From the UHGV virus genome UHGV-0030812: a stretch of DNA of 11,091 nucleotides; one strand, 5' to 3'. How positions within the stretch are numbered: the first letter of the stretch is position 1; each line of letters opens with the position of its first letter. The DNA comes from a virus. The translations under genes were made by a program, and so were the position numbers. The notes beneath the pieces were generated by a model that saw only the letters and a list, made by a program, of their open reading frames with translations, searched no databases and was not told the origin of the DNA. Positions 1-11,091 of the stretch are shown here, piece by piece.

Positions 1-87
1 GTCATTATTCTCTGCGGTATCCGTTTTGCCGCCGAGATCATCGTGCCGTTTATTCTCGCATTATTTATTGCTGTTATATATAACTAA
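1..87 (+). CDS. 3' end of a gene running in from the left edge (last 28 codons, ...VIILCGIRFAAEIIVPFILALFIAVIYN*); probably chromosomal flank encoding a membrane protein
   Basis: Frame 1 is open from the window edge to TAA at 85-87; the tail is strongly hydrophobic. Too short to appear in the ORF track. Identity not recognised. Confidence 0.3.
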   Translation, partial: VIILCGIRFAAEIIVPFILALFIAVIYN

Positions 88-151
88 TTTCACTTAACGC
101 ATTGATTTAATTAAATAATTTGCACTACAAAAAGTGCCATAAATCGCAAAA

Positions 152-174
152 TGACTACACCAGTGACTACACCG
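152..174 (+). repeat. Left copy of a 23-bp direct repeat TGACTACACCAGTGACTACACCG (internally a tandem of GTGACTACACC); candidate integrase arm-type site near the element boundary
   Basis: Identical 23-mer recurs at 10865-10887 in the same orientation; looser similarity (GAAACAA / GGAACAA motifs) continues about 50 bp to the right of both copies. Confidence 0.7.
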
Positions 175-282
175 TTCGGTGCACTGTATGAAACAACGTG
201 GAACAAATAGACACAAGAAATATACAGGCGGGTCATCTTTCCAGGGGGAAGCGCGCTAATTCATGAGGGGCGTTAATGTTGA

Positions 283-437
283 TATGGGGATCCCCATAAC
301 GGGGCTACCGGATTTTTTTTCCGGTTAACTGTTAATCAGGCTGGTGGGCTTTACCTGTTTTGTAGGAGTGGTCATTATGACCATTCAGACAATGACCTTA
401 ATCAGAACTTTTCGCTAAAAAATGACGTTGGTCACGT
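283..437. promoter_or_regulatory. Non-coding stretch packed with palindromes: TATGGGGATCCCCATA (283-298), CCGGA-T8-CCGG (311-327), GGTCATTATGACC (369-381), GACGTtggtcACGTC (423-437)
   Basis: Inverted repeats read directly from the sequence; no ORF of 60 aa or more on either strand. Function (operators, packaging or recombination accessory sites, RNA structure) is not assignable from sequence alone. Confidence 0.4.
416..437 (-). terminator. Weak candidate intrinsic terminator downstream of the 93-aa gene
   Basis: On the minus strand, hairpin GACGUgaccaACGUC (5-bp stem) is followed by AUUUUUUA. The stem is short, so this is tentative. Confidence 0.3.
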
Positions 438-490
438 CGTCCGGAAAGCACAAAATCCCGTCAATTTTTAATTAACGGTTAAACCGTCTT

Positions 491-540
491 TTGTCACGGC
501 GTGTCACTGGTTGTCACTCTCCGTCACGGTATGTCGCTAC
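491..540. repeat. Five tandem 10-bp repeats with a GTCAC core (ttGTCACggc / gtGTCACtgg / ttGTCACtct / ccGTCACggt / atGTCGCtac)
   Basis: Exact 10-bp periodicity (one helical turn) immediately 3' of the 93-aa gene; typical of a protein-binding array (iteron, arm-site or operator array). Confidence 0.6.
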
Positions 541-543
541 TCG

Positions 544-825
544 TTAACGCCGTAACCGCTCCGGCTTCTTCCAGTGGTACGTAATTTTCTCCGTTTCCCG
601 ATACAGTGCCACGCGGCGATTGTAGGCCAGCATTTCAAGAACGCGGATCCGTATGTTGCGCATATCCACATCATTAAGCTGGATACCATCACGGCGCATC
701 ACCTCAGCAACAACACGCGCATAATTTTCGGCTGTCACGCTGTCCGGCTGCGTGGCCTGTTCGTCAGTCTGCTGGCTGATTCCACCAGCACGGCGGATTA
801 ATCCCAGTATTTCGGCTTCTGTCAT
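544..825 (-). CDS. Hypothetical protein, 93 aa
   Basis: ORF with ATG at 825-823 and TAA at 546-544, preceded by a weak GGGTG Shine-Dalgarno. No family recognised. Lies just outside cos copy 1. Confidence 0.55.
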   Translation of the reverse strand: MTEAEILGLIRRAGGISQQTDEQATQPDSVTAENYARVVAEVMRRDGIQLNDVDMRNIRIRVLEMLAYNRRVALYRETEKITYHWKKPERLRR

Positions 826-857
826 TGTGCACCCATCGTTCTGATTGTCTGGTGTCG

Positions 858-925
858 TCGGGTCCTTCCTGGAATTATGGCCCGTTACGGGGCGGCGACC
901 TCGCGGTTTTTCGCTATTTATGAGC
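858..925 (+). other. Lambda-type cos site, copy 1 (cosQ-like GGGTCCTTCCTGG, cosN GTTACGGGGCGGCGACCTCGCGG, then TTTTTCGCTATTTATGA), plus-strand orientation
   Basis: Contains the 12-nt lambda cohesive-end sequence GGGCGGCGACCT (890-901) within the symmetric cosN. Roughly 85-90% identical to the reverse complement of 1621-1690. Lambda match is recalled from memory of the lambda genome ends. Confidence 0.7.
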
Positions 926-938
926 TTTTTTAGAGGGA

Positions 939-1088
939 GGTTGTTGTTTAATTGTTTGTCATATCCATTTGATAACTAAGTAAAAATAAAGAGCAATACA
1001 ACAACCTGATAGTGTTTTTTTGATGCTAAAAATAAAAAAATGCTAATTGAATCAAATAGTTTTAAAAAAATACGTGGTTGTTGTATTG
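939..1088. repeat. AT-rich segment carrying three copies of GGTTGTTGT(A/T)TTG (939-954 plus, 994-1006 minus, 1076-1088 plus); cosB-like terminase/accessory-protein binding region adjacent to cos copy 1
   Basis: Repeats read directly; A-tracts throughout (930-1110). The arrangement (repeats in both orientations next to cosN) resembles the R-site layout of lambda cosB. Confidence 0.45.
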
Positions 1089-1118
1089 CGTATTTGATGG
1101 CGTAACAGAAAGTGATTT

Positions 1119-1559
1119 TTAACTTTGCTGTTCTGTAACGACTGATTGTTCCATGCTGGCACGGCGAACGCTTACGGCATGACGCCACCCAGCCAGAAAG
1201 CCAGCCATTTTATTTCGTGCCTTGCTCACATCTTCCGGTGAATAGCCGTAAATCTGCAAACCTTCATCAAATCGATGTTCTGTTTCTTCACTGGAGTACT
1301 CGTCACGCTCAGATGAAAGCAGCCTGGCAAACATAATTTTTTCCAGCGCACTGGTTTCTACGTGATATCTGATGGTCTCAAGACGGCTTTTACCTGAAGA
1401 CCAAAGCAATGTATGCCCGATGTGATAACCGCCAGACTTTCCGCGATCCGCATTAAGATACGGCATCCCCTGTTTGGTCCATGCGCGAATAGTGGTTCTG
1501 TTAACCTTGAAATGTTCAGCTATTTCCTGCTGACTTACAAAACAAGCTTTATCAATCAT
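1119..1559 (-). CDS. Small terminase subunit homologue, lambda Nu1-like (N-terminal winged-HTH); possibly a packaging-redirection factor
   Basis: 146 aa; N-terminus VSQQEIAEHFKVNRTTIRAWTKQGMPYL parallels lambda Nu1 KKQLADIFGASIRTIQNWQEQGMPVL. ATG at 1559-1557 sits about 60 nt downstream of cos copy 2, as Nu1 does relative to cos in lambda. The C-terminal half is not obviously Nu1-like. Confidence 0.65.
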   Translation of the reverse strand: MIDKACFVSQQEIAEHFKVNRTTIRAWTKQGMPYLNADRGKSGGYHIGHTLLWSSGKSRLETIRYHVETSALEKIMFARLLSSERDEYSSEETEHRFDEGLQIYGYSPEDVSKARNKMAGFLAGWRHAVSVRRASMEQSVVTEQQS

Positions 1560-1620
1560 AATGTTACCTTAACTGCATGGTTAAATATTAATCAAGTGGT
1601 GGTGGTGTCATCTTCACGGA

Positions 1621-1690
1621 AAAACGTCATAAATAGCGAAAACCCGCGAGGTCGCCGCCCCGTAACGGGTCCATATGCCGGAAAGGACCC
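1621..1690 (-). other. Lambda-type cos site, copy 2 (minus-strand orientation), directly upstream of the Nu1-like gene
   Basis: Reverse complement reads GGGTCCTTTCCGG...GTTACGGGGCGGCGACCTCGCGGGTTTTCGCTATTTATGA, which matches the remembered lambda right-end/left-end junction almost base for base apart from about 10 nt between cosQ and cosN. Confidence 0.8.
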
Positions 1691-1692
1691 AT

Positions 1693-1716
1693 AAAAAAAA
1701 GCCGGATTTCTCCGGC
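1693..1716 (-). terminator. Rho-independent terminator ending the capsid operon
   Basis: On the minus strand, GCCGGAgaaaUCCGGC (perfect 6-bp GC-rich stem) is followed by U8; lies 7 nt downstream of the 137-aa gene stop. Confidence 0.8.
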
Positions 1717-1722
1717 CTTGTC

Positions 1723-2136
1723 TCAGATGGTTTTCAGTATGCGATCGATGTCGCCGTCATCGCCCTGGTTTCTGCCATCGTATGCCATGCCAGCTGATAC
1801 GGCTTGCGGGCTGTGCATGTCCATAAAGTTTTCAAAGGCTGCGGTAAGTTCCGGCGCAACCTTCGGACGTTCCTGCTCTATGGTCATGCTAAGGATGCTT
1901 TTAGCCGTACCAACATCGATACAAGGCACGTTTGCCATTGCACGTAACAGCGGCTGATAGTCGCCAGATTCATCAAGCGCCATAATCGCATCAGCGCGCG
2001 GCTTGTCCTGCTCTTCCAGTTTGTTGAGTTGATATACGGCCTCGTAGGTTGATAAACCTCTGTCAGCCATTGCCCGCGCTTCTGCTTTAAATTTACTCGC
2101 CAGCGGTAGCGCCATGATGCTTTCATTCGTTGCCAT
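1723..2136 (-). CDS. Hypothetical protein, 137 aa, last gene of the capsid operon
   Basis: ATG at 2136-2134 with AGGGGA Shine-Dalgarno, 12 bp after the gpD-like stop. No family recognised. Confidence 0.6.
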   Translation of the reverse strand: MATNESIMALPLASKFKAEARAMADRGLSTYEAVYQLNKLEEQDKPRADAIMALDESGDYQPLLRAMANVPCIDVGTAKSILSMTIEQERPKVAPELTAAFENFMDMHSPQAVSAGMAYDGRNQGDDGDIDRILKTI

Positions 2137-2148
2137 CGTTTCCCCTGC

Positions 2149-2484
2149 TTATCGCGCCAGCGGCTGAACGGATACGCCAGAACCCGCAAAGGCGGCGCAT
2201 TTTTTCGCGTCAGTGTCGGCGCTCTCAGGCCAGTTTACGGCGGCGATATTAAATATCCCCGTCTTGTAACACTGTGCTGATTTCTGCTTTGACGTGTCCA
2301 CGGGGTACGAGGTCAGATAAACAGCCTTGCCAGATTCCTGACCATCCCACGGCTTAAACTCGCCATTGTCCGCCAGCATCAGCGGGGTAAATTCCTGAAT
2401 AACGCCAGCATCAGCGGCAAAATGTACCAGCGTCGTGGCGACCTGCTGACTGCCTGCAAATAACTCAATGTATGGAGTGTCCAT
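2149..2484 (-). CDS. Head decoration protein, lambda gpD-like
   Basis: 111 aa; FTPLMLADNGEFKPWDG and YKTGIFNIAAVNWPESADTDAKKCAAFAGSGVSV align with lambda gpD MTPLMLD...VAWDG and [40 protein letters not shown] Shine-Dalgarno precedes the ATG. Confidence 0.8.
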   Translation of the reverse strand: MDTPYIELFAGSQQVATTLVHFAADAGVIQEFTPLMLADNGEFKPWDGQESGKAVYLTSYPVDTSKQKSAQCYKTGIFNIAAVNWPESADTDAKKCAAFAGSGVSVQPLAR

Positions 2485-2495
2485 AGAATCCCCCG

Positions 2496-3551
2496 TTAAC
2501 CAATTTTGACGGTAACAAATTTGCGAATATCTGCCGGTACCGGCTGCGGTGCACTGTGTGTCTGCACGTACTCAATCGCCGGATCTCCGTCCTCAATCCA
2601 GTTTTTCGGGTAGTACATGTTTTGCGTTGCCCCCGTTCTTACTGCGTCCTGATCCATAATCGCACCATAGGCCACCAGCCCTTTATTGTTGGTGTTGCCC
2701 AGGACAAGCAAATCAGGCTCAAGGAAATATTTTTCTGTGCCGTCGCTGTCGGCGTATTTGCCGGAATAGACGATAAGGGCAATATCGCCCAGATAGCCTT
2801 TAAAGCTCACCACTTCGCCCAAGTTTTTACATGCCAGCTCTGCGGCGGACTCTGAACCACGGGAAAGATCGTACAGCTCACGGAATTTTTTAAAGCTGCG
2901 TAACGTTCGCCATACCTCAGCGCCCATAATCATGACGTTGGCGGGGCAACCTGCCTGATCGGCGTATAGTTCGATATCATAGATTGGATCGTGGATTTCT
3001 TTGTCCTGCTCTGACCATTTTTTACCGTCGGCCTGCTCTATGATGTTTTTTTCCGGTATCTTCCAGTCGATTTCATAGCGCTCTATGCCTTCGCCCTCAA
3101 TGATGTTTTTTCCGGTCGTTACCGCATTTACCGCCAGCCATTCCACGCGCGCTTTTATGGCGTTTATCTGGCGGCGCATATTGCCAGTAATCAGGCGCAT
3201 ACGGCGATAGGTAGGGTCGTTAAGCTGTGCCGGATCTTCTCCAGCCATGCGCATGATGGTTTTCGTTGGATCGATTTCGTGCTTTGGCTTCATGTAGCCA
3301 GGTTTGATTGTGCTGGTTTCGTACCCTTTATCGCGCTGAACCTGGCTACCCACCATAGGCGAACAAAACGCCGACATGGTGACTTCTTCAATGTCCAGGG
3401 TATCCAGCATGATGTTTTGCGTGCTGAATGTCGCCACGTTCGGGAAAAACAGCGTGGTAAACAGCGGACTGAATTTAAATTCCGCAATATCCCCGCGATT
3501 CAGGTACGCAAAAAGCTGGTTAGTGTTAAGTGCCATTGCTTTTACTGTCAT
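2496..3551 (-). CDS. Major capsid protein, lambda gpE family
   Basis: 351 aa, colinear with lambda gpE (341 aa) along its whole length: FKFSPLFTTLFFP / FKFDPLFLRLFF, PGYMKPKHEIDP / PGYVKPKHEVNP, EDPAQLNDPTYRRMRLI / EDPQNLADPAYRRRRII, VLGNT, YPKNW. Start ATG overlaps the upstream stop as TAATG. Confidence 0.9.
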   Translation of the reverse strand: MTVKAMALNTNQLFAYLNRGDIAEFKFSPLFTTLFFPNVATFSTQNIMLDTLDIEEVTMSAFCSPMVGSQVQRDKGYETSTIKPGYMKPKHEIDPTKTIMRMAGEDPAQLNDPTYRRMRLITGNMRRQINAIKARVEWLAVNAVTTGKNIIEGEGIERYEIDWKIPEKNIIEQADGKKWSEQDKEIHDPIYDIELYADQAGCPANVMIMGAEVWRTLRSFKKFRELYDLSRGSESAAELACKNLGEVVSFKGYLGDIALIVYSGKYADSDGTEKYFLEPDLLVLGNTNNKGLVAYGAIMDQDAVRTGATQNMYYPKNWIEDGDPAIEYVQTHSAPQPVPADIRKFVTVKIG

Positions 3552-3757
3552 TATTCCCCCCCGTGAACCTGATTCATACCCAGCGCCGCGCGTAAATAGG
3601 CGCGTACCTGCCAGCCTGTTGACGGCTCAACCATCGCCAGCGGATCAAGTCCTGCCGCAATGCCTGCTTTTACGTTCTGCTGGTGGCGTTCCTTGAGCGC
3701 CTTCACGATGTCGGGGCTTATGTACACCGAAACACCGCCTTTTTTCTCTTCAGCCAT
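3551..3757 (-). CDS. Hypothetical protein, 68 aa, first gene of the capsid operon
   Basis: ATG at 3757-3755 with AAGAGGAA Shine-Dalgarno; its stop overlaps the capsid gene start, indicating translational coupling. No family recognised. Confidence 0.55.
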   Translation of the reverse strand: MAEEKKGGVSVYISPDIVKALKERHQQNVKAGIAAGLDPLAMVEPSTGWQVRAYLRAALGMNQVHGGE

Positions 3758-3785
3758 AGTAAGAAATTCCTCTTTGACTTAAAAA

Positions 3786-3841
3786 ATTATAACTGGATGT
3801 TCATCCAGTTCTGATTATAATCAGGATTGCATTTTGTGCAA
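3786..3841 (-). promoter_or_regulatory. Capsid-operon promoter with three contiguous palindromes: AACTGGATG-tt-CATCCAGTT (3791-3810), CTGATTATAATCAG (3811-3824), TTGCAttttgTGCAA (3827-3841)
   Basis: Minus-strand TATAAT (3791-3786) about 30 nt upstream of the orf68 ATG; the palindromes overlap and follow the -10/-35 region, consistent with a tightly regulated late promoter. Confidence 0.5.
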
Positions 3842-3921
3842 TGATATTGAGTTGTGTTGCAAATTATGAAATGATGATCCCGCTCATGTGTGTCAGTGCA
3901 CCAAAAAGCCTCATATGCAAA

Positions 3922-3959
3922 AGCCCGATAAGCCACCTCTGACCTTATCGGGCTTTTTT
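3922..3959 (+). terminator. Strong hairpin plus T-tract, best read as a plus-strand intrinsic terminator (possibly bidirectional)
   Basis: AGCCCGATAAG-(11 nt loop)-CTTATCGGGCT is a perfect 11-bp stem followed by TTTTTT on the plus strand. No annotated plus-strand gene lies upstream. Confidence 0.55.
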
Positions 3960-4134
3960 ATCTGCCTGCAAAGATGTCGAACGAAAATTAACCACAACCA
4001 TCATCTTTTTTGCATCAAAACAATTAAAAACAATAAATTACGCTCATGATGATGATGACGATAAAATCACAAAAATGCGCTTTTTTCCGCGCCTCCCGCC
4101 CCGTGTTCAGGCCCACCCCGCCAGGAGGACCCGT

Positions 4135-4156
4135 AAAAAAGCCGGATTGCTCCAGC
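4135..4156 (-). terminator. Rho-independent terminator after the SSB-like gene
   Basis: On the minus strand, GCUGGAgcaaUCCGGC (6-bp stem with one G-U pair) is followed by U6. Sequence is related to the 1693-1716 terminator. Confidence 0.55.
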
Positions 4157-4172
4157 TTCTGTCACTCGTCGC

Positions 4173-4595
4173 TTAAAACGGTATGTTATCCCCGTACGGA
4201 TCATCATTCCCCGCCTGTTGTTTTGCCCTGTTCAGCGCGTCAGTAGCCTGGCCCTGTTGACCTTTTTTGCCGCCCAGTCGCGCCGTTCGCGCACTGATTA
4301 CACTGTCTGCGATAACCTGCCAGCCCTGCCGCGTTTCTCCGTTCTGCCCAGTCCACTGGCTGATCTGCATGTTACCCGCCACGCTCAGGAGTTCACCCTT
4401 GCGGTGCCTTTCCAGTGCTTCGGCCTGTCTGCCAAATGCCAGGACGGATAACCACATCGTCGCCGTTCCGTCATCTGCCTGGCTGCACGGAAGGGGGACC
4501 GCCATACGCGCCAGCGTCATCGGTGTGCCCTTGCTGGTCTGTTTTACCTGCGGGTCGTCCACCAGCCGCCCGTAAGCTGCTATCTGTGCTGTCAT
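4173..4595 (-). CDS. ssb: Single-stranded DNA-binding protein (SSB) homologue
   Basis: 140 aa; the OB-fold core WLSVLAFGRQAEALERHRKGELLSVAGNMQISQWTGQNGETRQGWQVIAD parallels E. coli SSB [51 protein letters not shown]. The acidic C-terminal tip DDPYGDNIPF resembles the SSB DDDIPF tail. Confidence 0.8.
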   Translation of the reverse strand: MTAQIAAYGRLVDDPQVKQTSKGTPMTLARMAVPLPCSQADDGTATMWLSVLAFGRQAEALERHRKGELLSVAGNMQISQWTGQNGETRQGWQVIADSVISARTARLGGKKGQQGQATDALNRAKQQAGNDDPYGDNIPF

Positions 4596-4870
4596 TATTC
4601 CACCTCTCCGGTTTTAACGTTGATGGTTGTTACCTGTTCCGCTTCGGCAATCTCCCGCTCTGTCAGCGTGGCAAAATTTGCCGCCGTCGTGGTCATGAAT
4701 GCGCTTATCAGTTCGGGATGTGCTTTCGCGTATCCTTCCCCCGCGTGGCGGTCTATCGTTCTGATTGCCACCTTTAAAGCGTGCTCTGTCATGTCTAACG
4801 CGCGATATTTCGGTTCTGTTCTGTCTCTGCGTTTTTTGAGTGATTTATTAAATTTCCCTGAAGTGTGCAT
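4595..4870 (-). CDS. Hypothetical protein, 91 aa, translationally coupled to ssb
   Basis: ATG at 4870-4868; stop overlaps the ssb ATG as TAATG. No family recognised. Confidence 0.55.
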   Translation of the reverse strand: MHTSGKFNKSLKKRRDRTEPKYRALDMTEHALKVAIRTIDRHAGEGYAKAHPELISAFMTTTAANFATLTEREIAEAEQVTTINVKTGEVE

Positions 4871-4919
4871 ATTTATTTTTACCCCCTCGTTTAAAAAGTT
4901 TTGAGTTGTGCCTCCCCTT

Positions 4920-5145
4920 GTCTACCTTATCTACCTTAGTGGCCCTCATACCAGTAATGGCGCGGCTTTCAGCGGGGTAGAGTGCTTTTATCCACTATCT
5001 ACCCCGTGTCTACCTCCCTGTCTGATTCAGGTAAAATCAGGTAGAGAGGGTAGATAGTGGGTAGACAGTAAAAAAAGGCTATCTACCTAACTTAATGCAC
5101 TGAATTAAATGTATTTTTCTTTACTCAGGTAGACAGGGTAGACAG
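4920..5145. repeat. Iteron cluster, candidate replication origin: at least 10 copies of GGTAGA(C/G/T)AG / (C/T)TCTACC in both orientations
   Basis: Copies at 4920-4926, 4929-4935, 4976-4982, 4997-5004, 5008-5014, 5040-5046, 5049-5057, 5059-5068, 5081-5087, 5128-5136 and 5137-5145. Located immediately 3' of the primase/helicase gene, the usual position of a satellite ori. Confidence 0.6.
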
Positions 5146-5158
5146 CAATTACAAAAAA

Positions 5159-6913
5159 TTATAAAAACGCGTCGCACTCGTCTGTTGTTATTGCGTTAGT
5201 CTGCGTTACTCCCTTAACTTTCCGCGTAATATATTCATGTCCGTAAACTTTCGCGGCTGGCTTCATAGCCTTGCCAAAGTCATTTACGTTTAGCGGTTTG
5301 CTCCTGCCTGCGTACGCCATAAACGCCAGATAGACGCGGTAAAGACTGTTTCTGGTCGTGTACTTCACTGAATCGCCACCGCCGCCCATCATCAGGCCGC
5401 GTGCTTCCTCCAGAAAATTCAGGAACTGGCAAAACTCAATAACCGGATCCGTCTGTTGCTTTATTGCCAGAGCTTCATCACCGTCACGCTGTTCCAGTAG
5501 TAAAGCCCTCGCCTTCTCAGGGTCGGTAAAGTTCGCCAGCAATCGGCGGATAATGACAGGGATTTCAGCCGCGATCTTTTCCGGTAGCTCCCTGTCTTTT
5601 TCGGCCTCACTGACGATATTGTCGAAACGGAAAATCACGCGACGACGTGCCACACCTCCGGCCCGTTCGGTGAATATCATCGGGTTATTGTTGGTCGCCA
5701 GCACCACCGCCCTGATTACAGCCGTGAAACGCTTTTCGTATTTCGGGTTAATTTCCACGGGGTCACCGCCCGTGATTTTCTTGATGCCCGTTCCTTCGCC
5801 TGTATATTTCGGCTGGTCAGCCAGGACGATAAGACGACTCCCGACAACCTGCGCACGTCCACCAGCATCATCAAGCGATGTCATTTCAGCGCTTACCGTG
5901 TTCTGTTTCCCTGCCAGAAGGCTGGCTATGTGTGTGAATGTACTTTTACCGCTCCCGCCGTCTCCGGTGGCCTCAATAAACATCTGCCAGTCGTACCGGT
6001 TCGCCATAATCATGTACAGCGCGGCACATATACGCATCATCTTGCGCGGGTCTTTTCCGGCTGCGTGCTCAAGCCATTTATGAAAGTTTGGCGCGTTATC
6101 GCGGATGTTCTCCCCTGGTGCTGGTGGCGTGTACTCAATGCCGTTGTGCGTGGTGATCCAGTTCTCCGGCGTGTGCGGGGAAAATTCCCCCGTTTTCAGG
6201 TCAAGCGCACCATTGGCGAACGGCAACAAATCGCCGGACGGCTCGCCCATTGGTTCGGCAATAACTTTTAACGCTTCCACGGCGTTATTGATTACGCGCT
6301 TGCTGAAAGTGGCCCTGTGCTCTGAATAGATCGCCACCATTTCGCGGCTAAGTTCCATTGTGCTGACCGGACACCATACCCCGCCGCGCCATACGTGAAC
6401 GATTTCACTTTCAGGATGTACGCAAACGCCATCAAAGCGATCGGCAAGCAGCTGCGCGCGCTCACTGTCCGCCATCTGCGAAAGTTGCGCCTTTTGCTTT
6501 ACCGGAAGCTCAATGACCAGACCATCAGAAAGATTCTGGCGCTCACGGGCCAGATATTCGCGCCAGTTCTCCACCTTCTGACCGTGCATACCATCAGGGT
6601 AAAAATTTGCATCCTGTACGCCTGCCGCCGCCAGCTTCTGACCAATCGCCTTTATCATTACTGGCGCAAGATATCCGGCCCTGAATATGCGCACGGATTT
6701 TCTGCCTTCCGGCACAATTTGCAGCTTATCCAGTTCGGATAACTGCTGCTCCCCAAGCCACACAGGAGGCTCATTATCTCCGGCCATACGCGCGTCATGT
6801 TCCTGCCATTGTTTTGCGTGTGACCAGGCATCACTACCCGCAAAAATAATGACTTCTGTTTCTTTGTGTTTTATGCCGCGTGACTGCTGTTTTACGTTCG
6901 GTGCCAGTTTCAT
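5159..6913 (-). CDS. Replication initiator: primase fused to a P4-alpha / D5-type SF3 helicase domain (Pri-Rep)
   Basis: 584 aa; Walker A GDGGSGKST and downstream LIVLAD-type Walker B in the C-terminal half. Size and layout typical of P4-family/PICI primase-helicases. ATG overlaps the upstream stop (ATGA). Confidence 0.85.
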   Translation of the reverse strand: MKLAPNVKQQSRGIKHKETEVIIFAGSDAWSHAKQWQEHDARMAGDNEPPVWLGEQQLSELDKLQIVPEGRKSVRIFRAGYLAPVMIKAIGQKLAAAGVQDANFYPDGMHGQKVENWREYLARERQNLSDGLVIELPVKQKAQLSQMADSERAQLLADRFDGVCVHPESEIVHVWRGGVWCPVSTMELSREMVAIYSEHRATFSKRVINNAVEALKVIAEPMGEPSGDLLPFANGALDLKTGEFSPHTPENWITTHNGIEYTPPAPGENIRDNAPNFHKWLEHAAGKDPRKMMRICAALYMIMANRYDWQMFIEATGDGGSGKSTFTHIASLLAGKQNTVSAEMTSLDDAGGRAQVVGSRLIVLADQPKYTGEGTGIKKITGGDPVEINPKYEKRFTAVIRAVVLATNNNPMIFTERAGGVARRRVIFRFDNIVSEAEKDRELPEKIAAEIPVIIRRLLANFTDPEKARALLLEQRDGDEALAIKQQTDPVIEFCQFLNFLEEARGLMMGGGGDSVKYTTRNSLYRVYLAFMAYAGRSKPLNVNDFGKAMKPAAKVYGHEYITRKVKGVTQTNAITTDECDAFL

Positions 6914-7209
6914 TTTTTACCCCTGAATCCGTTAATCATGGTTTTCAGCTTCTGGATGTTTGCCCGTGCCCTGGCGTTGCTGGTGGGCACGTTATGCGGC
7001 GCGGTCTGTACCAGAGAAAAATCACGCCGGAACTGATAAACAGGCATCACGCAATCATATTCGTAACCTTCACGGCGGTAGGTTACGCGCCGTTCTTCCA
7101 CGCCCTTAATCATTACCGTGCCGCCGTACTGGTCGCGGTAAATATCGCCGCGCGTAAATTTAGGGTGAGTGTTGCCACTGGCAGTTAAGCCAGAATATTT
7201 AAGTTTCAT
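6910..7209 (-). CDS. Hypothetical protein, 99 aa, translationally coupled to the primase gene
   Basis: ATG at 7209-7207 with GGAGAA Shine-Dalgarno; stop overlaps the primase ATG. No family recognised. Confidence 0.55.
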   Translation of the reverse strand: MKLKYSGLTASGNTHPKFTRGDIYRDQYGGTVMIKGVEERRVTYRREGYEYDCVMPVYQFRRDFSLVQTAPHNVPTSNARARANIQKLKTMINGFRGKK

Positions 7210-7279
7210 TATTTTTATTCTCCGGTGTGCTGTTCTTTATATCTGTCGTGCAATAGATCTATTTCTTGCAGTTCCATTA

Positions 7280-7417
7280 TTACAGGCTCAATTTTTGTTT
7301 GTCGCGTTCATTGTCGCCAAGTGTTTCAAGCCATATGCGTAATATTTCCATCATGCTTTCACTGTGAGAAAGTGCAAGAAATGCGCGGTCTATTGTTTCA
7401 AGGTAAATATCACGCAT
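7280..7417 (-). CDS. Small ORF, 45 aa (MRDIYLETIDRAFLALSHSESMMEILRIWLETLGDNERDKQKLSL), absent from the ORF track
   Basis: ATG at 7417-7415 lies 1 nt after the orf73 stop, with GGGGA 5 nt upstream; TAA at 7282-7280. Hand-translated; fills an otherwise empty 200-bp gap in a tightly packed operon. Confidence 0.35.
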   Translation of the reverse strand: MRDIYLETIDRAFLALSHSESMMEILRIWLETLGDNERDKQKLSL

Positions 7418-7418
7418 A

Positions 7419-7640
7419 TTAATCCCCGTCCGTCGTTTTTCTTAAAATAACCTCTGTCACGAAATCAGCATAATCGGCGACGATATTCAGTACATCAAGC
7501 CCCGTTGATTTATATTCTCTCGTGGAAAGTAAGAAAAAAGCCGCTCTAATAAGCTCTGGCATTGACGAAAGCGCATCAGCCGCATCATCAGGAACGCCGG
7601 AAAATTCCTGTTTCAGGGAATTAAAACGATCATCACGCAT
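7419..7640 (-). CDS. Hypothetical protein, 73 aa (or the C-terminal part of a frameshifted longer protein)
   Basis: ATG at 7640-7638 directly after the G9 tract, which could act as its Shine-Dalgarno. No family recognised. Confidence 0.5.
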   Translation of the reverse strand: MRDDRFNSLKQEFSGVPDDAADALSSMPELIRAAFFLLSTREYKSTGLDVLNIVADYADFVTEVILRKTTDGD

Positions 7641-7873
7641 AACCCCCCCCCATTTTCACAATCAGCAATCAGGATGGCTTTAGCCTCATTCAGCGCCATA
7701 TCCGCACTAAGTTGCATAACCGCCAGCGAATGAGGAACGAAAGCCCCTGCATATTCTGTTTCACTGGTGGCGTGCTTATGCGCCATGTCAGCAATAACAG
7801 AAATATCAATAAGCGCGTGCATCAGCGTAGTGAGCGCGGCGGCTGCTGCGTCCGGTGTGGTTTTATTGCACAT
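7613..7873 (-). CDS. Hypothetical protein, 86 aa from the ATG with the AGGAGG Shine-Dalgarno
   Basis: AGGAGG sits 7 nt upstream of the ATG at 7873-7871, so the ORF-track start at 7915 is probably too long. The ATG overlaps the end of the Icd-like gene. Ends ENGGG LCVMIVLIP* right after the G9 tract. Confidence 0.5.
   Translation of the reverse strand: MCNKTTPDAAAAALTTLMHALIDISVIADMAHKHATSETEYAGAFVPHSLAVMQLSADMALNEAKAILIADCENGGGLCVMIVLIP
7643..7651. repeat. Homopolymer C9 (G9 on the coding strand) at the orf86/orf73 junction
   Basis: Read directly; the two ORFs overlap across it in different frames. Confidence 0.9.
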
Positions 7874-8063
7874 GGCACACCTCCTGACGAATACGGGCGG
7901 CGAATACAGCAACACAACCGGACGGGCAACGGCTACGCGCTTCGCGTTCCGTCCAGGCGGTTACGTGGATGATTTGAGATTCTCCGGCACTTAGTGCCAG
8001 AAAACGCCACACAAAGGCAGTTTGTGTGTGCGCCAGACGTGGGGTATGCTGTGTTCCAGCCAT
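7863..8063 (-). CDS. Small protein (66 aa) resembling the Icd-like family of P4-type elements; first gene of the leftward replication operon
   Basis: ATG at 8063-8061 with AGGAG 7 nt upstream. Sequence MAGTQHTPRLAHTQTAFVWRFLALS...TEREARSRCP...FAARIRQE matches my recollection of Icd-like proteins (unverified). The ORF track shows it only as the tail of an implausible 378-aa read-through ORF. Confidence 0.5.
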   Translation of the reverse strand: MAGTQHTPRLAHTQTAFVWRFLALSAGESQIIHVTAWTEREARSRCPSGCVAVFAARIRQEVCHVQ

Positions 8064-8151
8064 AATCGTTACTCCTGTTAACGGTTTGGTTAGACGCCCC
8101 GCTACTGCCGCAAACAGTTCGGGGCGTTGTCGTTTACATCCTCTTACTGAG

Positions 8152-8228
8152 GTGTGATTTAAATTAAATTCAACTGAATCACAGGTCAAGTGTTTTTTGT
8201 GATTCTTTTTTGTGTATACTGAATCACA
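8152..8228. promoter_or_regulatory. Divergent promoter/operator region with two inverted-repeat sites: TGTGATT-N15-TGAATCACA (8153-8183) and TGTGATTC-N14-TGAATCACA (8198-8228)
   Basis: Repeats read directly. They lie between the leftward operon (start 8063) and the rightward RHH gene (start 8251). The second site overlaps a TATACT -10 candidate (8215-8220). Confidence 0.5.
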
Positions 8229-8250
8229 TCTTTTGTTTAGGAGAATGCAC

Positions 8251-8556
8251 ATGGCAAAAAACACTATCAACGACAAATCAAAACAGATTTCAATTCGTAT
8301 CCCACATGATGCTTTTGATGGCATGGAATCCGTAAAACTGGACGGCGAAAGCAACGCCGGATTCATAGTAACCGCCATGCGCGGGGAGATCGCCCGCCGC
8401 CAGGCAGAAGGAAGCAGTGAAAATCCTCTGATTTCTTCTCTCGATGCATTGGCGCAAGTGGAAAAAATTGGTATTAAAGCTACGGAAGAACTCGGGCAAC
8501 TTATCGCCATCGCTCGTGAAGAACTACAGCGCCGCAAGGCCAAAGAATCAGAATAA
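8251..8556 (+). CDS. Ribbon-helix-helix (CopG/Arc-type) DNA-binding protein; candidate repressor of the element
   Basis: 101 aa from the ATG at 8251, with GGAGA 7 nt upstream (the ORF-track GTG start at 8212 is probably too long). N-terminal KQISIRIPHDAFDGMESV...AGFIVTAMRGEIARR fits a beta-strand/helix/helix RHH fold. Divergent from the replication operon. Confidence 0.6.
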   Translation: MAKNTINDKSKQISIRIPHDAFDGMESVKLDGESNAGFIVTAMRGEIARRQAEGSSENPLISSLDALAQVEKIGIKATEELGQLIAIAREELQRRKAKESE

Positions 8557-8598
8557 TCACTATCAGCGCCGTGGTGTGAGGTATTACGGCGCATTGCT

Positions 8599-8787
8599 AT
8601 GCAGGACAACACAATGACCGATAAAGAATTGACCAAAACATTATCACCGGCACGGAAAAGACGGCGCAGAAAGATAGAGCATGAATCAGAAAGATTCGCG
8701 CCATGTGCTTTTGCCCTTGAGCAATTCCTTAAAGAATACAGGGAAAAGCGCTCATTGCAGGTATGGCAACGAACTGAACCAGACTGA
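8599..8787 (+). CDS. Hypothetical small basic protein, 62 aa (KRRRRK motif)
   Basis: ORF downstream of the RHH gene, ending before the 8883-8910 terminator. No convincing Shine-Dalgarno, so weakly supported. Confidence 0.3.
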   Translation: MQDNTMTDKELTKTLSPARKRRRRKIEHESERFAPCAFALEQFLKEYREKRSLQVWQRTEPD

Positions 8788-8882
8788 TTGCATTGCCCAC
8801 CAGCCTGATAGCGGCTATCATCCCCGTGCTTATGTTTGGGATCACACACACAAACGGCGCAGCGGGTTATCTGTTCAGAAAG

Positions 8883-8910
8883 GCGGCTCCATTTCGGGGC
8901 CGCTTTTTTT
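8883..8910 (+). terminator. Rho-independent terminator for the rightward RHH transcript
   Basis: GCGGCTCC-atttc-GGGGCCGC (8-bp stem, one G-U pair) followed by T7. Confidence 0.7.
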
Positions 8911-9056
8911 ATGCCTGAAAAACCCCAATTTTGTGGTTTTCCAGTCTCACCAGGGCGAACGAATCCCCGCCCACGTTCTGGCGTATATTCAATCTTCATG
9001 GTTATAGCTCTGTGTTCAGATGATTGATGTGTGGCGGCTGCGTGCCGCCAGCGTGA

Positions 9057-9245
9057 TTAATGAACTGCCTTGCAGCTATCCTTCCAGGCCAGAACCTCGG
9101 ATAAAGACCAGCCAACGGAACGACCGCTAAGTTTACGACGTGATGGGAATTGTCCGGCCTTTTCCAGGCGGTAGCGGCATGAGCGGCTAAGGCCTGTTAG
9201 CTTTTCGCATTCTTTTTCACGTATAAACCGATCAGTGCTTAACAC
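9057..9245 (-). CDS. alpA: AlpA-family transcriptional regulator (phage/satellite excisionase-like HTH)
   Basis: 62 aa, GTG start with AAGGGGG Shine-Dalgarno. LTGLSRSCRYRLEKAGQFPSRRKLSGRSVGWSLSEVLAW is the canonical AlpA pattern. Immediately upstream of int on the same strand. Confidence 0.85.
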   Translation of the reverse strand: MLSTDRFIREKECEKLTGLSRSCRYRLEKAGQFPSRRKLSGRSVGWSLSEVLAWKDSCKAVH

Positions 9246-9609
9246 TATTGCCCCCTTTCGTTTCTTAAAGAGTCATCAGGTGTCTTATTGTGTCGTATTG
9301 TTCCCGCTAGAGTGATGAATGGCAAATATTGAGGATGTATGATTTACAGAAAATGAAACAGTAAGAATAAAATCTTTTAAATTCATGTTAATACAAAGGC
9401 ATAAAATATTGTTTCATGCCTTTTTTCTCGCTATTTAAAGAGTGATTCGCTAGTGTATAAAAAACCAGTAACACATTAAAAATCAGCTACTTATAAATCC
9501 GTACACTTTTTCGCCTCTTGTTCGTAGTTGTTCCGCATTGTTGCTCATTGTTGCACGTTGTATCTGTTCGCATATCCAGTATGCGCATACTGAAAAAACA
9601 CGAAAAAAA

Positions 9610-10839
9610 TTATTTTCTTCTGGCTACTGGTAGCGTGGTTACGTTTTCATGTGTTCCCGCCAGTATCCCTAACCGCTCCGTCCACATATCCAGCGCATTG
9701 CGTTTAGCATCCAGATAACGGGAATGATTATAAACTCGCTGCATTCCTGGCATCTGGTGGCCTGTAAGCTGCTCCACGACATGCGGATCAACGCCTAAAT
9801 CGTTCAGCATGGTTGTAAAGGTGCGCCGGATGTCATGCAGTGACCAGTGAGGATGATTAAGCCTCCTGTGCGCTAATCTTCCATACTGCGATACGCTGGC
9901 CTCCTGTTTCACTTCCCCCAGCAATAAGCCCGTGTGCCTGTTCTGCTCCACCAGCTGCGTGACGAACGGCAGGATCGCTTCCGGTATGGGCCGGAATATT
10001 GCGACCTTCGTTTTGCTGTGCTCCTTCGGAACGGTCCATAGCATTTCCGTAAAATCCCACTCCCCGATCTCCGATAACCTCAGTTCTACCGTTCTGGCTC
10101 CGAAGACAATCAGGAGGCGGATTAACGCGACGTAGTAAGGGGAGAATATTTTTTTGTCCAGTGCCTGCAATAATTCGCCAAGTTCTTTGTTACTTAAGAC
10201 ACGTTCGCTTATATCCGGTTTTTTCCCAACGTCCGCCACGTTCAGATCGTCCAGAACGTTGCTGATTGCATAGCGCCGCCTACGGCAGAACTTAAGCGCC
10301 TGTTTGCACGCCTGTAGCACGAATCCGGCAGTAACAGGCGTTCGCTTTGCCACCTGGTCAAAACAGGCCAGCCAGTGCCGTAGCTCGCATTTATCCAGCG
10401 GCATAGCACCAATCTGCTGTATTACGTGATTATTAAGTCGCCTTTTCAGGGCGATATAATCCACGCGGTTTTCCTTTACGTAATACTCAAGCCAGTAGGT
10501 GAGCGCATCGCCAACCGTTACGGGCTTTAACGCTTCCTGTACGGTGTAATTCATCTCATGACGTGGATTTTTCCCCTCAGCCAGCCATGTGCGACACTGT
10601 GCGGCTTTTTCCCTGGCTGCTTTCAGGCTCAGATCAGGATAACTTCCCAGCTTAATGCGTTCGGGTCGTGTCTCCCTTCCCGTTCCGGCCCTGTATGTGA
10701 AATACCAGGTCAATTTCCCTGATGTTAAATATTTCACGCTCAGGTTTCCGCCATCACTATAAAACGTGTTTTTCTCCGCTGGCTTACCATGAAGTTTCCT
10801 TAGCAAGGTATCGCTCAGTTTGTTCATTGCTCTGCTCAC
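9610..10839 (-). CDS. int: Tyrosine recombinase, P4-type integrase
   Basis: 409 aa. Catalytic signature: R in ARTVELR, HDIRRTF (H-x-x-R), GHQMPGMQRVYNHSRY (H and Y nucleophile); N-terminal arm-binding-type domain. Start may be GTG at 10839 (AGAGGGGG upstream) or ATG at 10827. Confidence 0.9.
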   Translation of the reverse strand: MSRAMNKLSDTLLRKLHGKPAEKNTFYSDGGNLSVKYLTSGKLTWYFTYRAGTGRETRPERIKLGSYPDLSLKAAREKAAQCRTWLAEGKNPRHEMNYTVQEALKPVTVGDALTYWLEYYVKENRVDYIALKRRLNNHVIQQIGAMPLDKCELRHWLACFDQVAKRTPVTAGFVLQACKQALKFCRRRRYAISNVLDDLNVADVGKKPDISERVLSNKELGELLQALDKKIFSPYYVALIRLLIVFGARTVELRLSEIGEWDFTEMLWTVPKEHSKTKVAIFRPIPEAILPFVTQLVEQNRHTGLLLGEVKQEASVSQYGRLAHRRLNHPHWSLHDIRRTFTTMLNDLGVDPHVVEQLTGHQMPGMQRVYNHSRYLDAKRNALDMWTERLGILAGTHENVTTLPVARRK

Positions 10840-10864
10840 GTTTTACCCCCTCTTTACGAAAAAG

Positions 10865-10887
10865 TGACTACACCAGTGACTACACCG
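10865..10887 (+). repeat. Right copy of the 23-bp direct repeat TGACTACACCAGTGACTACACCG, about 25 bp upstream of the int start
   Basis: Identical to 152-174; followed by GAAACAAG / GGAACAAG motifs as at the left copy. Confidence 0.7.
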
Positions 10888-11091
10888 ATCGTTGCACAAA
10901 GGGCTACAACGTGAAACAAGCTGGAACAAGGAAAATCACAAATCTGTTGATAATCAAAAACATAATGCACAGCCTGAAACATTATGAAACAGCAAAAAAC
11001 ACTAAATGATAAAATGCTGTTATTCTTAACCCGCTGGTGCAACACATGGTCCGCTGGCGAGTGCCGCGTGTACTGGCGGTGTCGATTTTGA

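Follow-up and report, generated by a model that had tools for sequence, protein, structure and literature searches.

The short genes crowded in front of the primase gene of UHGV virus genome UHGV-0030812 raise the question of whether they form an array of independent, undescribed proteins or a module that recurs in other elements. This sequence of 11,091 nucleotides (nt), referred to throughout as the window, had been described in a sequence-only reading as carrying five tightly chained open reading frames (ORFs) between a regulator and the primase gene; only an Icd-like protein was recognised among their products, and an interference or anti-defence function was proposed. We found that the block is an ordinary early module of a satellite family present in a large share of Escherichia coli genomes. 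In our assessment, the region 5159-8063 is probably the promoter-proximal portion of the early/replication operon of an integrated E. coli satellite of the phage-inducible chromosomal island (PICI) lineage, approximately 10.95 kb in size; this degree of confidence applies to our explanation as a whole, including the behaviour of a variable poly-G tract inside the block. The gene units are four, namely an Icd-like gene, an A/B pair, gene C and an rgdR homologue, and not five independent genes. The hypervariable poly-G tract lies at the junction of A and B (A|B), and a sister tract is present in C69, an alternative gene family at the position of C; both appear to be undescribed.

Gene units of the small-gene block

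All five ORFs are present at 6910-8063 on the minus strand, as had been reported. Together with the primase gene, they are arranged as follows.

7863-8063, minus strand: Icd-like gene, first gene of the operon, 66 amino acids (aa), basic (isoelectric point, pI, 9.3); NCBIfam NF033153, phrog_1743 and phrog_6196
7613-7873, minus strand: orf86, module A in its G9 allele, 86 aa; phrog_2512 positions 1-77 of 154
7419-7640, minus strand: orf73, module B, 73 aa, with its own ATG right after the tract; phrog_2512 positions 78-145
7280-7417, minus strand: orf45, shortened 5' part of gene C; phrog_2196 positions 1-42 of 74
6910-7209, minus strand: orf99, rgdR homologue; Pfam PF13973 (DUF4222)
5159-6913, minus strand: primase (D5_N, DUF5906, Pox_D5), the replication gene predicted to be coupled to the small ORFs

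The reported tight chaining was evident at most of the junctions. The Icd-like gene overlaps orf86 by 11 nt, orf86 overlaps orf73 by 28 nt, a 1-nt spacer lies between orf73 and orf45, and the stop codon of orf99 overlaps the primase start as ATGA; the junction of orf45 and orf99 is not tight, and a gap of 70 nt was found there. G-rich Shine-Dalgarno sequences precede every start (AGGAG, AGGAGG, G9, GGGGA, GGAG and AGGGG), as the earlier reading had noted. Such overlapping or nearly abutting stop and start codons would couple the translation of the small genes to one another and to that of the primase.

Conservation and synteny across related islands, which the sequence-only reading had named as a check, bore out the array. 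Among the 101 related loci with sufficient flanking sequence, the Icd-like gene was found upstream in all 101, RgdR in 100 and the 77-aa product of intact gene C (C77) in 81; 61 of the loci have a RepA-type helicase as their replication gene, and 32 have a primase. Chance does not account for the array, because the same gene order is kept in these 101 loci and the ratio of nonsynonymous to synonymous substitution rates (dN/dS) is 0.27-0.38 for each unit.

Profile and structure searches, the other check proposed, succeeded in part: the RgdR and Icd-like proteins could be assigned, and A, B and C had no functional match. The PHROG profiles matched every unit, A, B and C only within families of 'unknown function', and the only function-annotated Pfam or NCBIfam matches in the block were DUF4222 in orf99 and the Icd-like model (NF033153, 64.7 bits, cutoff 25). 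No match for A, B or C was found in Pfam, NCBIfam or PADLOC, and the PADLOC defence profiles revealed no family for Icd, A-B, C77, RgdR or X70. Acidic pI values of 4.4-4.8 were obtained for the proteins A, B and C (A 4.75, B 4.4); Icd and RgdR are basic.

The statement that nothing except the Icd-like protein was recognisable did not hold, because orf99 is, judged by its sequence, a homologue of RgdR (DUF4222, PF13973; PMC3378721). It matched the Pfam model PF13973 with an E-value of 1.6e-24 (85.7 bits, cutoff 27) and was identical to RgdR of strain Sakai (ECs1581) at 80 of 99 residues (81%). RgdR activates LEE1 and type III secretion (T3S), represses motility and binds DNA non-specifically (PMC3378721). 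The RGD motif at residues 20-22 (KFT-RGD-IY) and K35 (..MIK35G), which have been shown to be important for the activation of T3S by RgdR (PMC3378721), are both kept in orf99. Additionally, the two proteins share a length of 99 aa, the DUF4222 domain, a pI of about 10 and a position directly upstream of, and overlapping, the replication gene. They differ at 19 of 99 residues, and the LEE1 and motility activity of the orf99 allele is a prediction from homology; its host strain may be devoid of LEE. RgdR has been reported in all E. coli PICIs analysed (PMC6092414). The predicted model of orf99 comprised a Tudor/SH3-like barrel and a basic helix, and the Tudor-like fold of RgdR, a prediction of the present analysis, resembles RNA polymerase-binding domains. 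RgdR may thus work on transcription via a Tudor-like domain and a basic DNA-binding helix. This predicted fold offers the hypothesis that RgdR could bind RNA polymerase.

The second correction concerns orf45, which is a lineage-specific deletion remnant of the conserved gene C, inactivated in the window copy. An annotated island of E. coli strain 300709, which splits tqsA, shares 99.95% identity with the window. Upon alignment with this locus (L001), the window was found to lack 31 bp, corresponding to L001 7993-8023.

7291-7292: junction of the 31-bp deletion, from the alignment to L001
7215-7277, minus strand: surviving 3' end of gene C, its last 20 codons (MELQEIDLLHDRYKEQHTGE; native residues 58-77)

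The deletion shifts the reading frame and thereby creates the 45-aa ORF, and the 70-nt gap between orf45 and orf99 exists because the leftover 3' codons of gene C occupy 7215-7277. Intact gene C encodes an acidic protein of 77 aa; the full-length protein P0174 covers positions 1-74 of phrog_2196, and its exact sequence was found on 429 contigs. The best 120 homologue clusters of C were nearly all 77 aa in length, with six exceptions of 76-126 aa. The deletion junction was found in none of the 136 other tract-bearing loci, and all 60 of the best complete-genome matches retained the extra bases. A total of 24 contigs (49 indexed blocks) carried the exact 45-aa product, and the three of 23 similar places that were examined (L139-L141) showed the same junction, the same tqsA context and the same G9 tract. 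Both the 31-bp deletion and G9 are real and not assembly errors, because NCBI and Logan assemblies, which are independent of each other, show the same state. A perfect 7-nt inverted repeat, TCAAGAA/TTCTTGA, flanks the deleted segment in the intact allele (L001 7985-8030); this suggests a hairpin-mediated deletion.

The poly-G tract between A and B

The G runs that bear on the A/B pair are listed below.

7643-7651, minus strand: hypervariable poly-G tract, G9 in the window; Gly linker at the end of A, 2 nt before the ATG of B
3556-3562, minus strand: second G run, G7, at the end of a 68-aa gene; Shine-Dalgarno sequence of the capsid gene (..CACGGGGGGGAATAATG)
C69 poly-G run: loci L004, L006, L019, L036, L037, L043, L048, L054, L058, L082, L085, L094, L105, L111, L112 and L120

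The products of the A/B pair differed with the length of the tract. In the window, where the tract is G9, A has 86 aa, consisting of module residues 1-77 and a frameshift tail (78-86), and B is a separate protein of 73 aa. The tail, LCVMIVLIP, comprises nine hydrophobic residues and is present solely because the tract is G9. The G8 allele of strain 300709 and another island encodes proteins of 79 aa and 73/77 aa; in G8 and G11, A ends in YA and B is separate. A single A-B protein is encoded by G7 in an O157 strain (154 aa) and by G10 in other homologues (155 aa). In the G8 allele, ..GGT TAT GCG TGA overlaps the ATG of B, and the same ATGCGTGA stop/start junction was observed at the B/C boundary and in distant relatives that have no tract. 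The best 120 homologue clusters were fused, with lengths of 148-161 aa (all but five 150-155 aa) and junctions of CENGG-VMRDD or CENGGG-VMRDD, and the Met of B was retained in nearly all fused alleles. In the distant relatives, separate genes of ~75 aa end in ..HA and the stop codon and contain no poly-G.

The spectrum of tract lengths was similar in unrelated datasets. The 52 metagenome contigs contained G7 in 10, G8 in 27, G9 in 12, G10 in 1, G11 in 0 and an interrupted tract in 2, and the corresponding numbers for 80 IMG/VR contigs were 23, 33, 18, 3, 2 and 1. Complete E. coli genomes gave approximate counts of 126 for G7, 127 for G8, 97 for G9 and 11 for G10. Even contigs with exactly the A and B amino-acid haplotype of the window were mixed (G7 2, G8 292, G9 155, G10 123 and G11 70), and the exact 73-aa B product was found on 524 contigs. 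On a flank-based tree of 116 loci, at least 42 changes in tract length were required, compared with 54 +/- 2.8 when the labels were shuffled. Mixed lengths were present in 7 of 15 clusters at <=0.5% divergence, and the window (G9) and L001 (G8) had zero differences in their flanks. The tract is a coding homopolymer whose length varies among close relatives and which shifts the frame, as a contingency locus does. As a control, the G7 run upstream of the capsid gene was constant in all 3 loci containing it, and the A|B tracts of these loci were 8, 9 and 11. The in-frame share of A|B alleles was about 20-38%, close to the third that would be expected if the frame were not under selection.

We also observed that nucleotide diversity among the 116 loci was 0.07-0.14 within ~40 nt of the tract, compared with 0.2-0.38 elsewhere in A and B. 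The A|B junction may also serve as a conserved joint at which shuffled variants of A and B recombine, and part of the dip stems from the ascertainment of loci.

In the explanation we favour, the poly-G run would have a double role: it would encode the Gly-Gly(-Gly) end of A and serve as the Shine-Dalgarno sequence of B, able to pair with the anti-Shine-Dalgarno sequence. Replication slippage would often alter the length of the run, and the set of products would follow that length, with G7 and G10 giving one A-B polypeptide, G8 and G11 giving A with the YA end and B, and G9 giving a tailed A and B. Since B would start on its own, both modules would be made from every tract length and the tract would be free to drift; every length probably remains functional. 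The tolerance of the fusion further implies that A and B would act as a single unit. In this explanation, A, B and C would act soon after induction by binding other proteins.

Selection on the two modules was similar irrespective of their state. The dN/dS values were 0.29 for A and 0.27-0.38 for B; among split alleles alone they were 0.30-0.38 for A and 0.275-0.33 for B, and across fused and split states 0.24-0.38 for A and 0.27-0.49 for B. Purifying selection was found on A, B, C77 and RgdR, and on both A and B whether fused or split. The AlphaFold model of A-B (pLDDT, predicted local distance difference test, 62) comprised two helical hairpins, with the tract located within a low-confidence linker. 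A Foldseek search with this model revealed no match with E<1 in PDB or BFVD, a sequence and profile search of PDB returned only designed helical repeats (E>0.003), and HMMER with the fused protein against 1.84 billion representatives found only 53 relatives, none of them informative.

The content of the block is exchanged between related elements. In Sakai Sp7, the A/B position is occupied by ECs1578 and ECs1579, and ECs1580 is a distant relative of C77. Across related elements, the position of orf45 is held by at least three unrelated families, and some elements insert a gene of ~70 aa after icd. Such turnover is typical of accessory or conflict genes. A separate poly-G run is present in C69 (MDKIPFDVL...), one of the alternative families at position C; in 16 loci this run ranged from G5 to G10. 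Within one C69 haplotype, in-frame products of 69, 68 and 70 aa were found on 140, 41 and 2 contigs (183), and frameshifting gave a 47-aa product on 128 contigs and a 52-aa product on 67 (195), so about half of the C69 copies are cut short.

The variation of the tract could be ascribed to sequencing errors, to which homopolymers are prone on some platforms, and orf86, orf73 and orf45 could be pseudogene fragments of a dying island; orf45 is truly a broken gene, and copies of the integrated island could in some cases be inert. We consider this reading scarcely credible. Sequencing error is unlikely because the length spectra agree across three unrelated datasets, Illumina metagenomes included, the G9 and deletion state recurs in independent NCBI and Logan assemblies, and the control G7 is constant; an artefact was rejected on these grounds. 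Pseudogene decay of A and B was rejected on account of the purifying selection that also acts on C77 and RgdR, and metagenomic data hold a circular contig of the element. Programmed recoding, by ribosomal frameshifting or transcriptional slippage, could instead yield A and A-B from one out-of-frame allele, as in dnaX and the tail-chaperone genes G/GT. Most alleles are indeed out of frame, and tRNA-Gly would re-pair perfectly in any frame on a G8 or G9 run. It also speaks for recoding that Shine-Dalgarno-like sequences stimulate frameshifting in dnaX and prfB and that G-strings give low-level recoding in the G-string mutants of herpesvirus TK. Nevertheless, recoding appears quite improbable here. 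Programmed frameshift sites have a fixed arrangement and a stimulatory structure, whereas the A|B tract is variable in length with common in-frame alleles, and RNA folding around it gave no stable structure (z = -0.33). Moreover, the shift would have to be +1 for G8 and -1 for G9, for which no single mechanism accounts, and B has its own ATG, which makes recoding unnecessary.

The tract could also be a selected contingency (phase-variation) locus, in which fused, split and tailed subpopulations differ in activity. Both the A|B and the C69 runs would then be hypermutable switches, altered by slipped-strand mispairing and serving within-clone bet-hedging against helper phages or the host. Five length alleles occur at substantial frequency inside one amino-acid haplotype, length is nearly fully scrambled with respect to phylogeny, the tract is almost never interrupted (3 of 132 loci and 2 of 120 fused clusters), G9 adds a hydrophobic tail to A, and C69 carries an independent second tract with 183 contigs in frame versus 195 out of frame. 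However, no allele is clearly 'off', with B retaining its start codon and Shine-Dalgarno sequence, dN/dS is alike in the fused and split states, and the in-frame fraction lies close to that expected without selection. G9 was identical in the three independent assemblies checked, so switching is not extremely fast, and the need for a G-rich Shine-Dalgarno sequence suffices to explain why the tract is retained. We regard selected switching as unlikely and keep it in consideration because two independent variable G runs occur in one module. A different proposal, which may hold together with our explanation, is that at least one of A, B and C serves as an effector in helper sensing, in acting against the helper or in anti-defence. 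All three are small, acidic and helical, their genes belong to the early block of a satellite, cassettes at their positions are exchanged, and lesions and on/off tracts are frequent, as expected of conflict genes. Judged by position, charge, turnover and lesions, these proteins could plausibly take part in interactions with the helper or the host. Against an effector stand the lack of a PADLOC match, of a PHROG with an annotated function and of a structural relative; the literature on ECs1578-1580 offers nothing except a comparative genomic hybridisation table, and rgdR, the sole characterised gene of the block, is a regulator of host genes and not an interference factor. We therefore give the effector proposal a modest chance at most.

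Several points weigh against the combined explanation of a PICI-lineage operon with a freely drifting tract. The translation of the block ORFs is read from the nucleotide sequence, and the A-B model is only moderately confident and has no functional relative by fold or sequence. The search pattern behind the tract loci demands conserved flanks and six or more G, which under-samples alleles without a tract, and the complete-genome counts are approximate as they derive from identity bands. The in-frame share fits neutrality and fits a selected switch as well. The C69 tract resembles a classical on/off switch, and the A|B tract may therefore be more than a tolerated by-product. Finally, the capsid genes described below are atypical for classical PICIs.

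If our explanation is correct, A/B is a natural fusion/fission polymorphism driven by G7-G11, which predicts that A and B form a single unit, and the tract alleles provide a ready-made allelic series. Selection on the tracts would make them a rare example of simple-repeat phase variation in E. coli, and the first from any phage satellite. Should they be merely tolerated, caution in annotation is called for, since the same gene is called one, two or truncated 'hypothetical proteins' in thousands of genomes. The literature on homopolymeric tracts in PICIs revealed nothing relevant.

The satellite element and its control region

The element spans 69-11023, with 9-bp direct repeats at both boundaries and the tqsA gene as its site. 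Its layout is int, alpA, a ylcI-like regulator gene, the icd-like ... rgdR block, primase, ssb (encoding the single-stranded DNA-binding protein SSB) and capsid genes.

69-77: att core repeat TGCTGTTAT at the left boundary of the element, within tqsA
1119-1559, minus strand: TerS-like helix-turn-helix protein, from a profile match
1723-2136, minus strand: scaffold-like protein, from a match to the C-terminal portion of a family of head proteases
2149-2484, minus strand: D-type decoration protein (HDPD), from a profile match
2496-3551, minus strand: major capsid protein of the lambda E type (Phage_cap_E), from a profile match
8148-8228: divergent control region carrying two palindromes that resemble operators, flanked by the YlcI/YnfO-family gene and the icd operon
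8251-8556, plus strand: YlcI/YnfO-family gene (YlcI_YnfO_N, 65.7 bits), divergent from the icd operon
9057-9245: AlpA (Phage_AlpA, E=1.9e-17)
9610-10839: integrase (Phage_integrase and Arm-DNA-bind_3), from a profile match
11015-11023: att core repeat TGCTGTTAT, right end of the element, adjoining the integrase gene

The same element was identified as an IMG/VR contig of 11,098 nt (L084). This contig indicates a circular form, excised or packaged, because its 119-bp terminal overlap joins exactly the two att points at 69-77 and 11015-11023. The L084 copy has an intact C77 gene and a G11 A|B tract. At least a partial match to the small-gene block or the element was found in 1606 of 5426 complete E. 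coli genomes. In the phage GenBank collection, matches were confined to stretches of 58-74 nt around the icd gene start and leader, and a search of the GTDB species representatives with a narrow alignment revealed one Shigella locus.

The partial head module (window 544-3757, minus strand) corresponds to neither the classical PICI layout nor that of capsid-forming PICIs (cf-PICIs). PHROG and Pfam scans detected no portal, protease or TerL among the window ORFs. Different satellites were also found at the roxA-adjacent site in different O157 strains: Sakai Sp7 (L142, ECs1577-ECs1582) is cf-PICI-like, with a full head module and the ECs1578/1579 cassettes, and the roxA-adjacent element of strain 155 (L002) contains A-B (G7, fused), C77, RgdR, RepA and PerC.

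Repeat analysis of the control region (8148-8228) revealed the palindromes TGTGATT-N17-AATCACA and TGTGATTC-N15-GAATCACA, which may be operators; the direct repeat ACTGAATCACA occurs twice in the same region. A GC-rich hairpin, ACGCCCCG-N18-CGGGGCGT, without a T run, is located in the icd 5' leader (8094-8127, minus strand), downstream of the putative promoter and ahead of the Shine-Dalgarno sequence of icd. An Rfam search upstream of icd for a P1 c4- or IsrK-type RNA gave nothing at E<=0.1, and a consensus scan for promoters and terminators over 6700-9400 gave nothing exceeding the shuffled expectation. The icd frame is open for 378 codons further upstream (7863-8999, minus strand), antisense to the YlcI/YnfO-family gene and a 62-aa ORF. 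In strain 300709, RefSeq places an 'icd-like protein' pseudogene at the equivalent of window 8442-8999, and the Icd match to phrog_29966 (188 positions) is confined to its C-terminal end.

Comparison with known systems

We compared the element with the E. coli PICIs EcCICFT073 and O-island 51 (CP-933C, Sakai Sp7) and found the same set of int, alpA, icd-like ... rgdR block, pri/rep and ssb (PMC6092414, PMC3378721). These elements share a size of about 11-15 kb, and a relative in strain ED1a occupies the same ydgG/tqsA site (ydgD-ydgG, PMC3378721). The Icd-like protein of the window is 88% identical to ECs1577 of Sakai Sp7, and RgdR is 81% identical to ECs1581; in contrast, the two genes that separate icd from the C-like gene in Sp7, ECs1578 and ECs1579, are unrelated cassettes. 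As in other Gram-negative PICIs (PMC6092414), the element has an integrase gene at one end followed by alpA, its own primase, a size within about 10-15 kb and att repeats at a dedicated site. Those PICIs contain no structural genes, whereas capsid, decoration and scaffold-like genes are present here. Helper induction and packaging are putative for this element, with indirect support from the circular metagenomic contig. A cf-PICI carries a full head module (capsid, protease, portal, head-tail connectors, TerS and TerL); this identity was rejected, since no portal, protease or TerL was found among the window ORFs, and Sakai Sp7 has these genes.

The sequence-only reading had likened the position of the block to that in P4-type elements and PICIs. 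It was right in that this is a satellite small-gene block between a regulatory region and a replication gene, and the P4 part of the likeness proved loose. In the P4 left operon (cI, epsilon, orf151, alpha), small genes likewise precede a D5-type primase, with an AlpA/Vis-like gene and an integrase gene nearby, and the equivalent position holds the helper-derepression function, epsilon. The small proteins of the window, however, have no sequence or profile similarity to P4 proteins; PHROG and Pfam assigned none of the block proteins to the P4 epsilon or derepression families, and no CI or, by Rfam, C4-type RNA was found. A P4-like satellite was rejected because no ORF scanned had a PHROG or Pfam match to Psu, Sid, Delta or epsilon.

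The Icd-like protein resembles phage P1 Icd, the cell-division inhibitor of the immI operon, in that it matches the Icd-like model NF033153 (64.7 bits) and in that both are small, basic and encoded first in an operon. They differ in that Rfam revealed no c4-type antisense RNA upstream of the window gene and PHROGs labels the family 'transcriptional repressor'; inhibition of division is a prediction here.

Simple-repeat switching is uncommon in E. coli. The A|B tract is similar to the contingency loci of Neisseria, Haemophilus, Campylobacter and Helicobacter in being a pure coding run of G7-11 whose length differs between near-identical strains and alters the frame. The difference is that the A|B tract has no clear off state and would convert one polypeptide into two, because the run precedes a start codon and is predicted to act as its ribosome-binding site.

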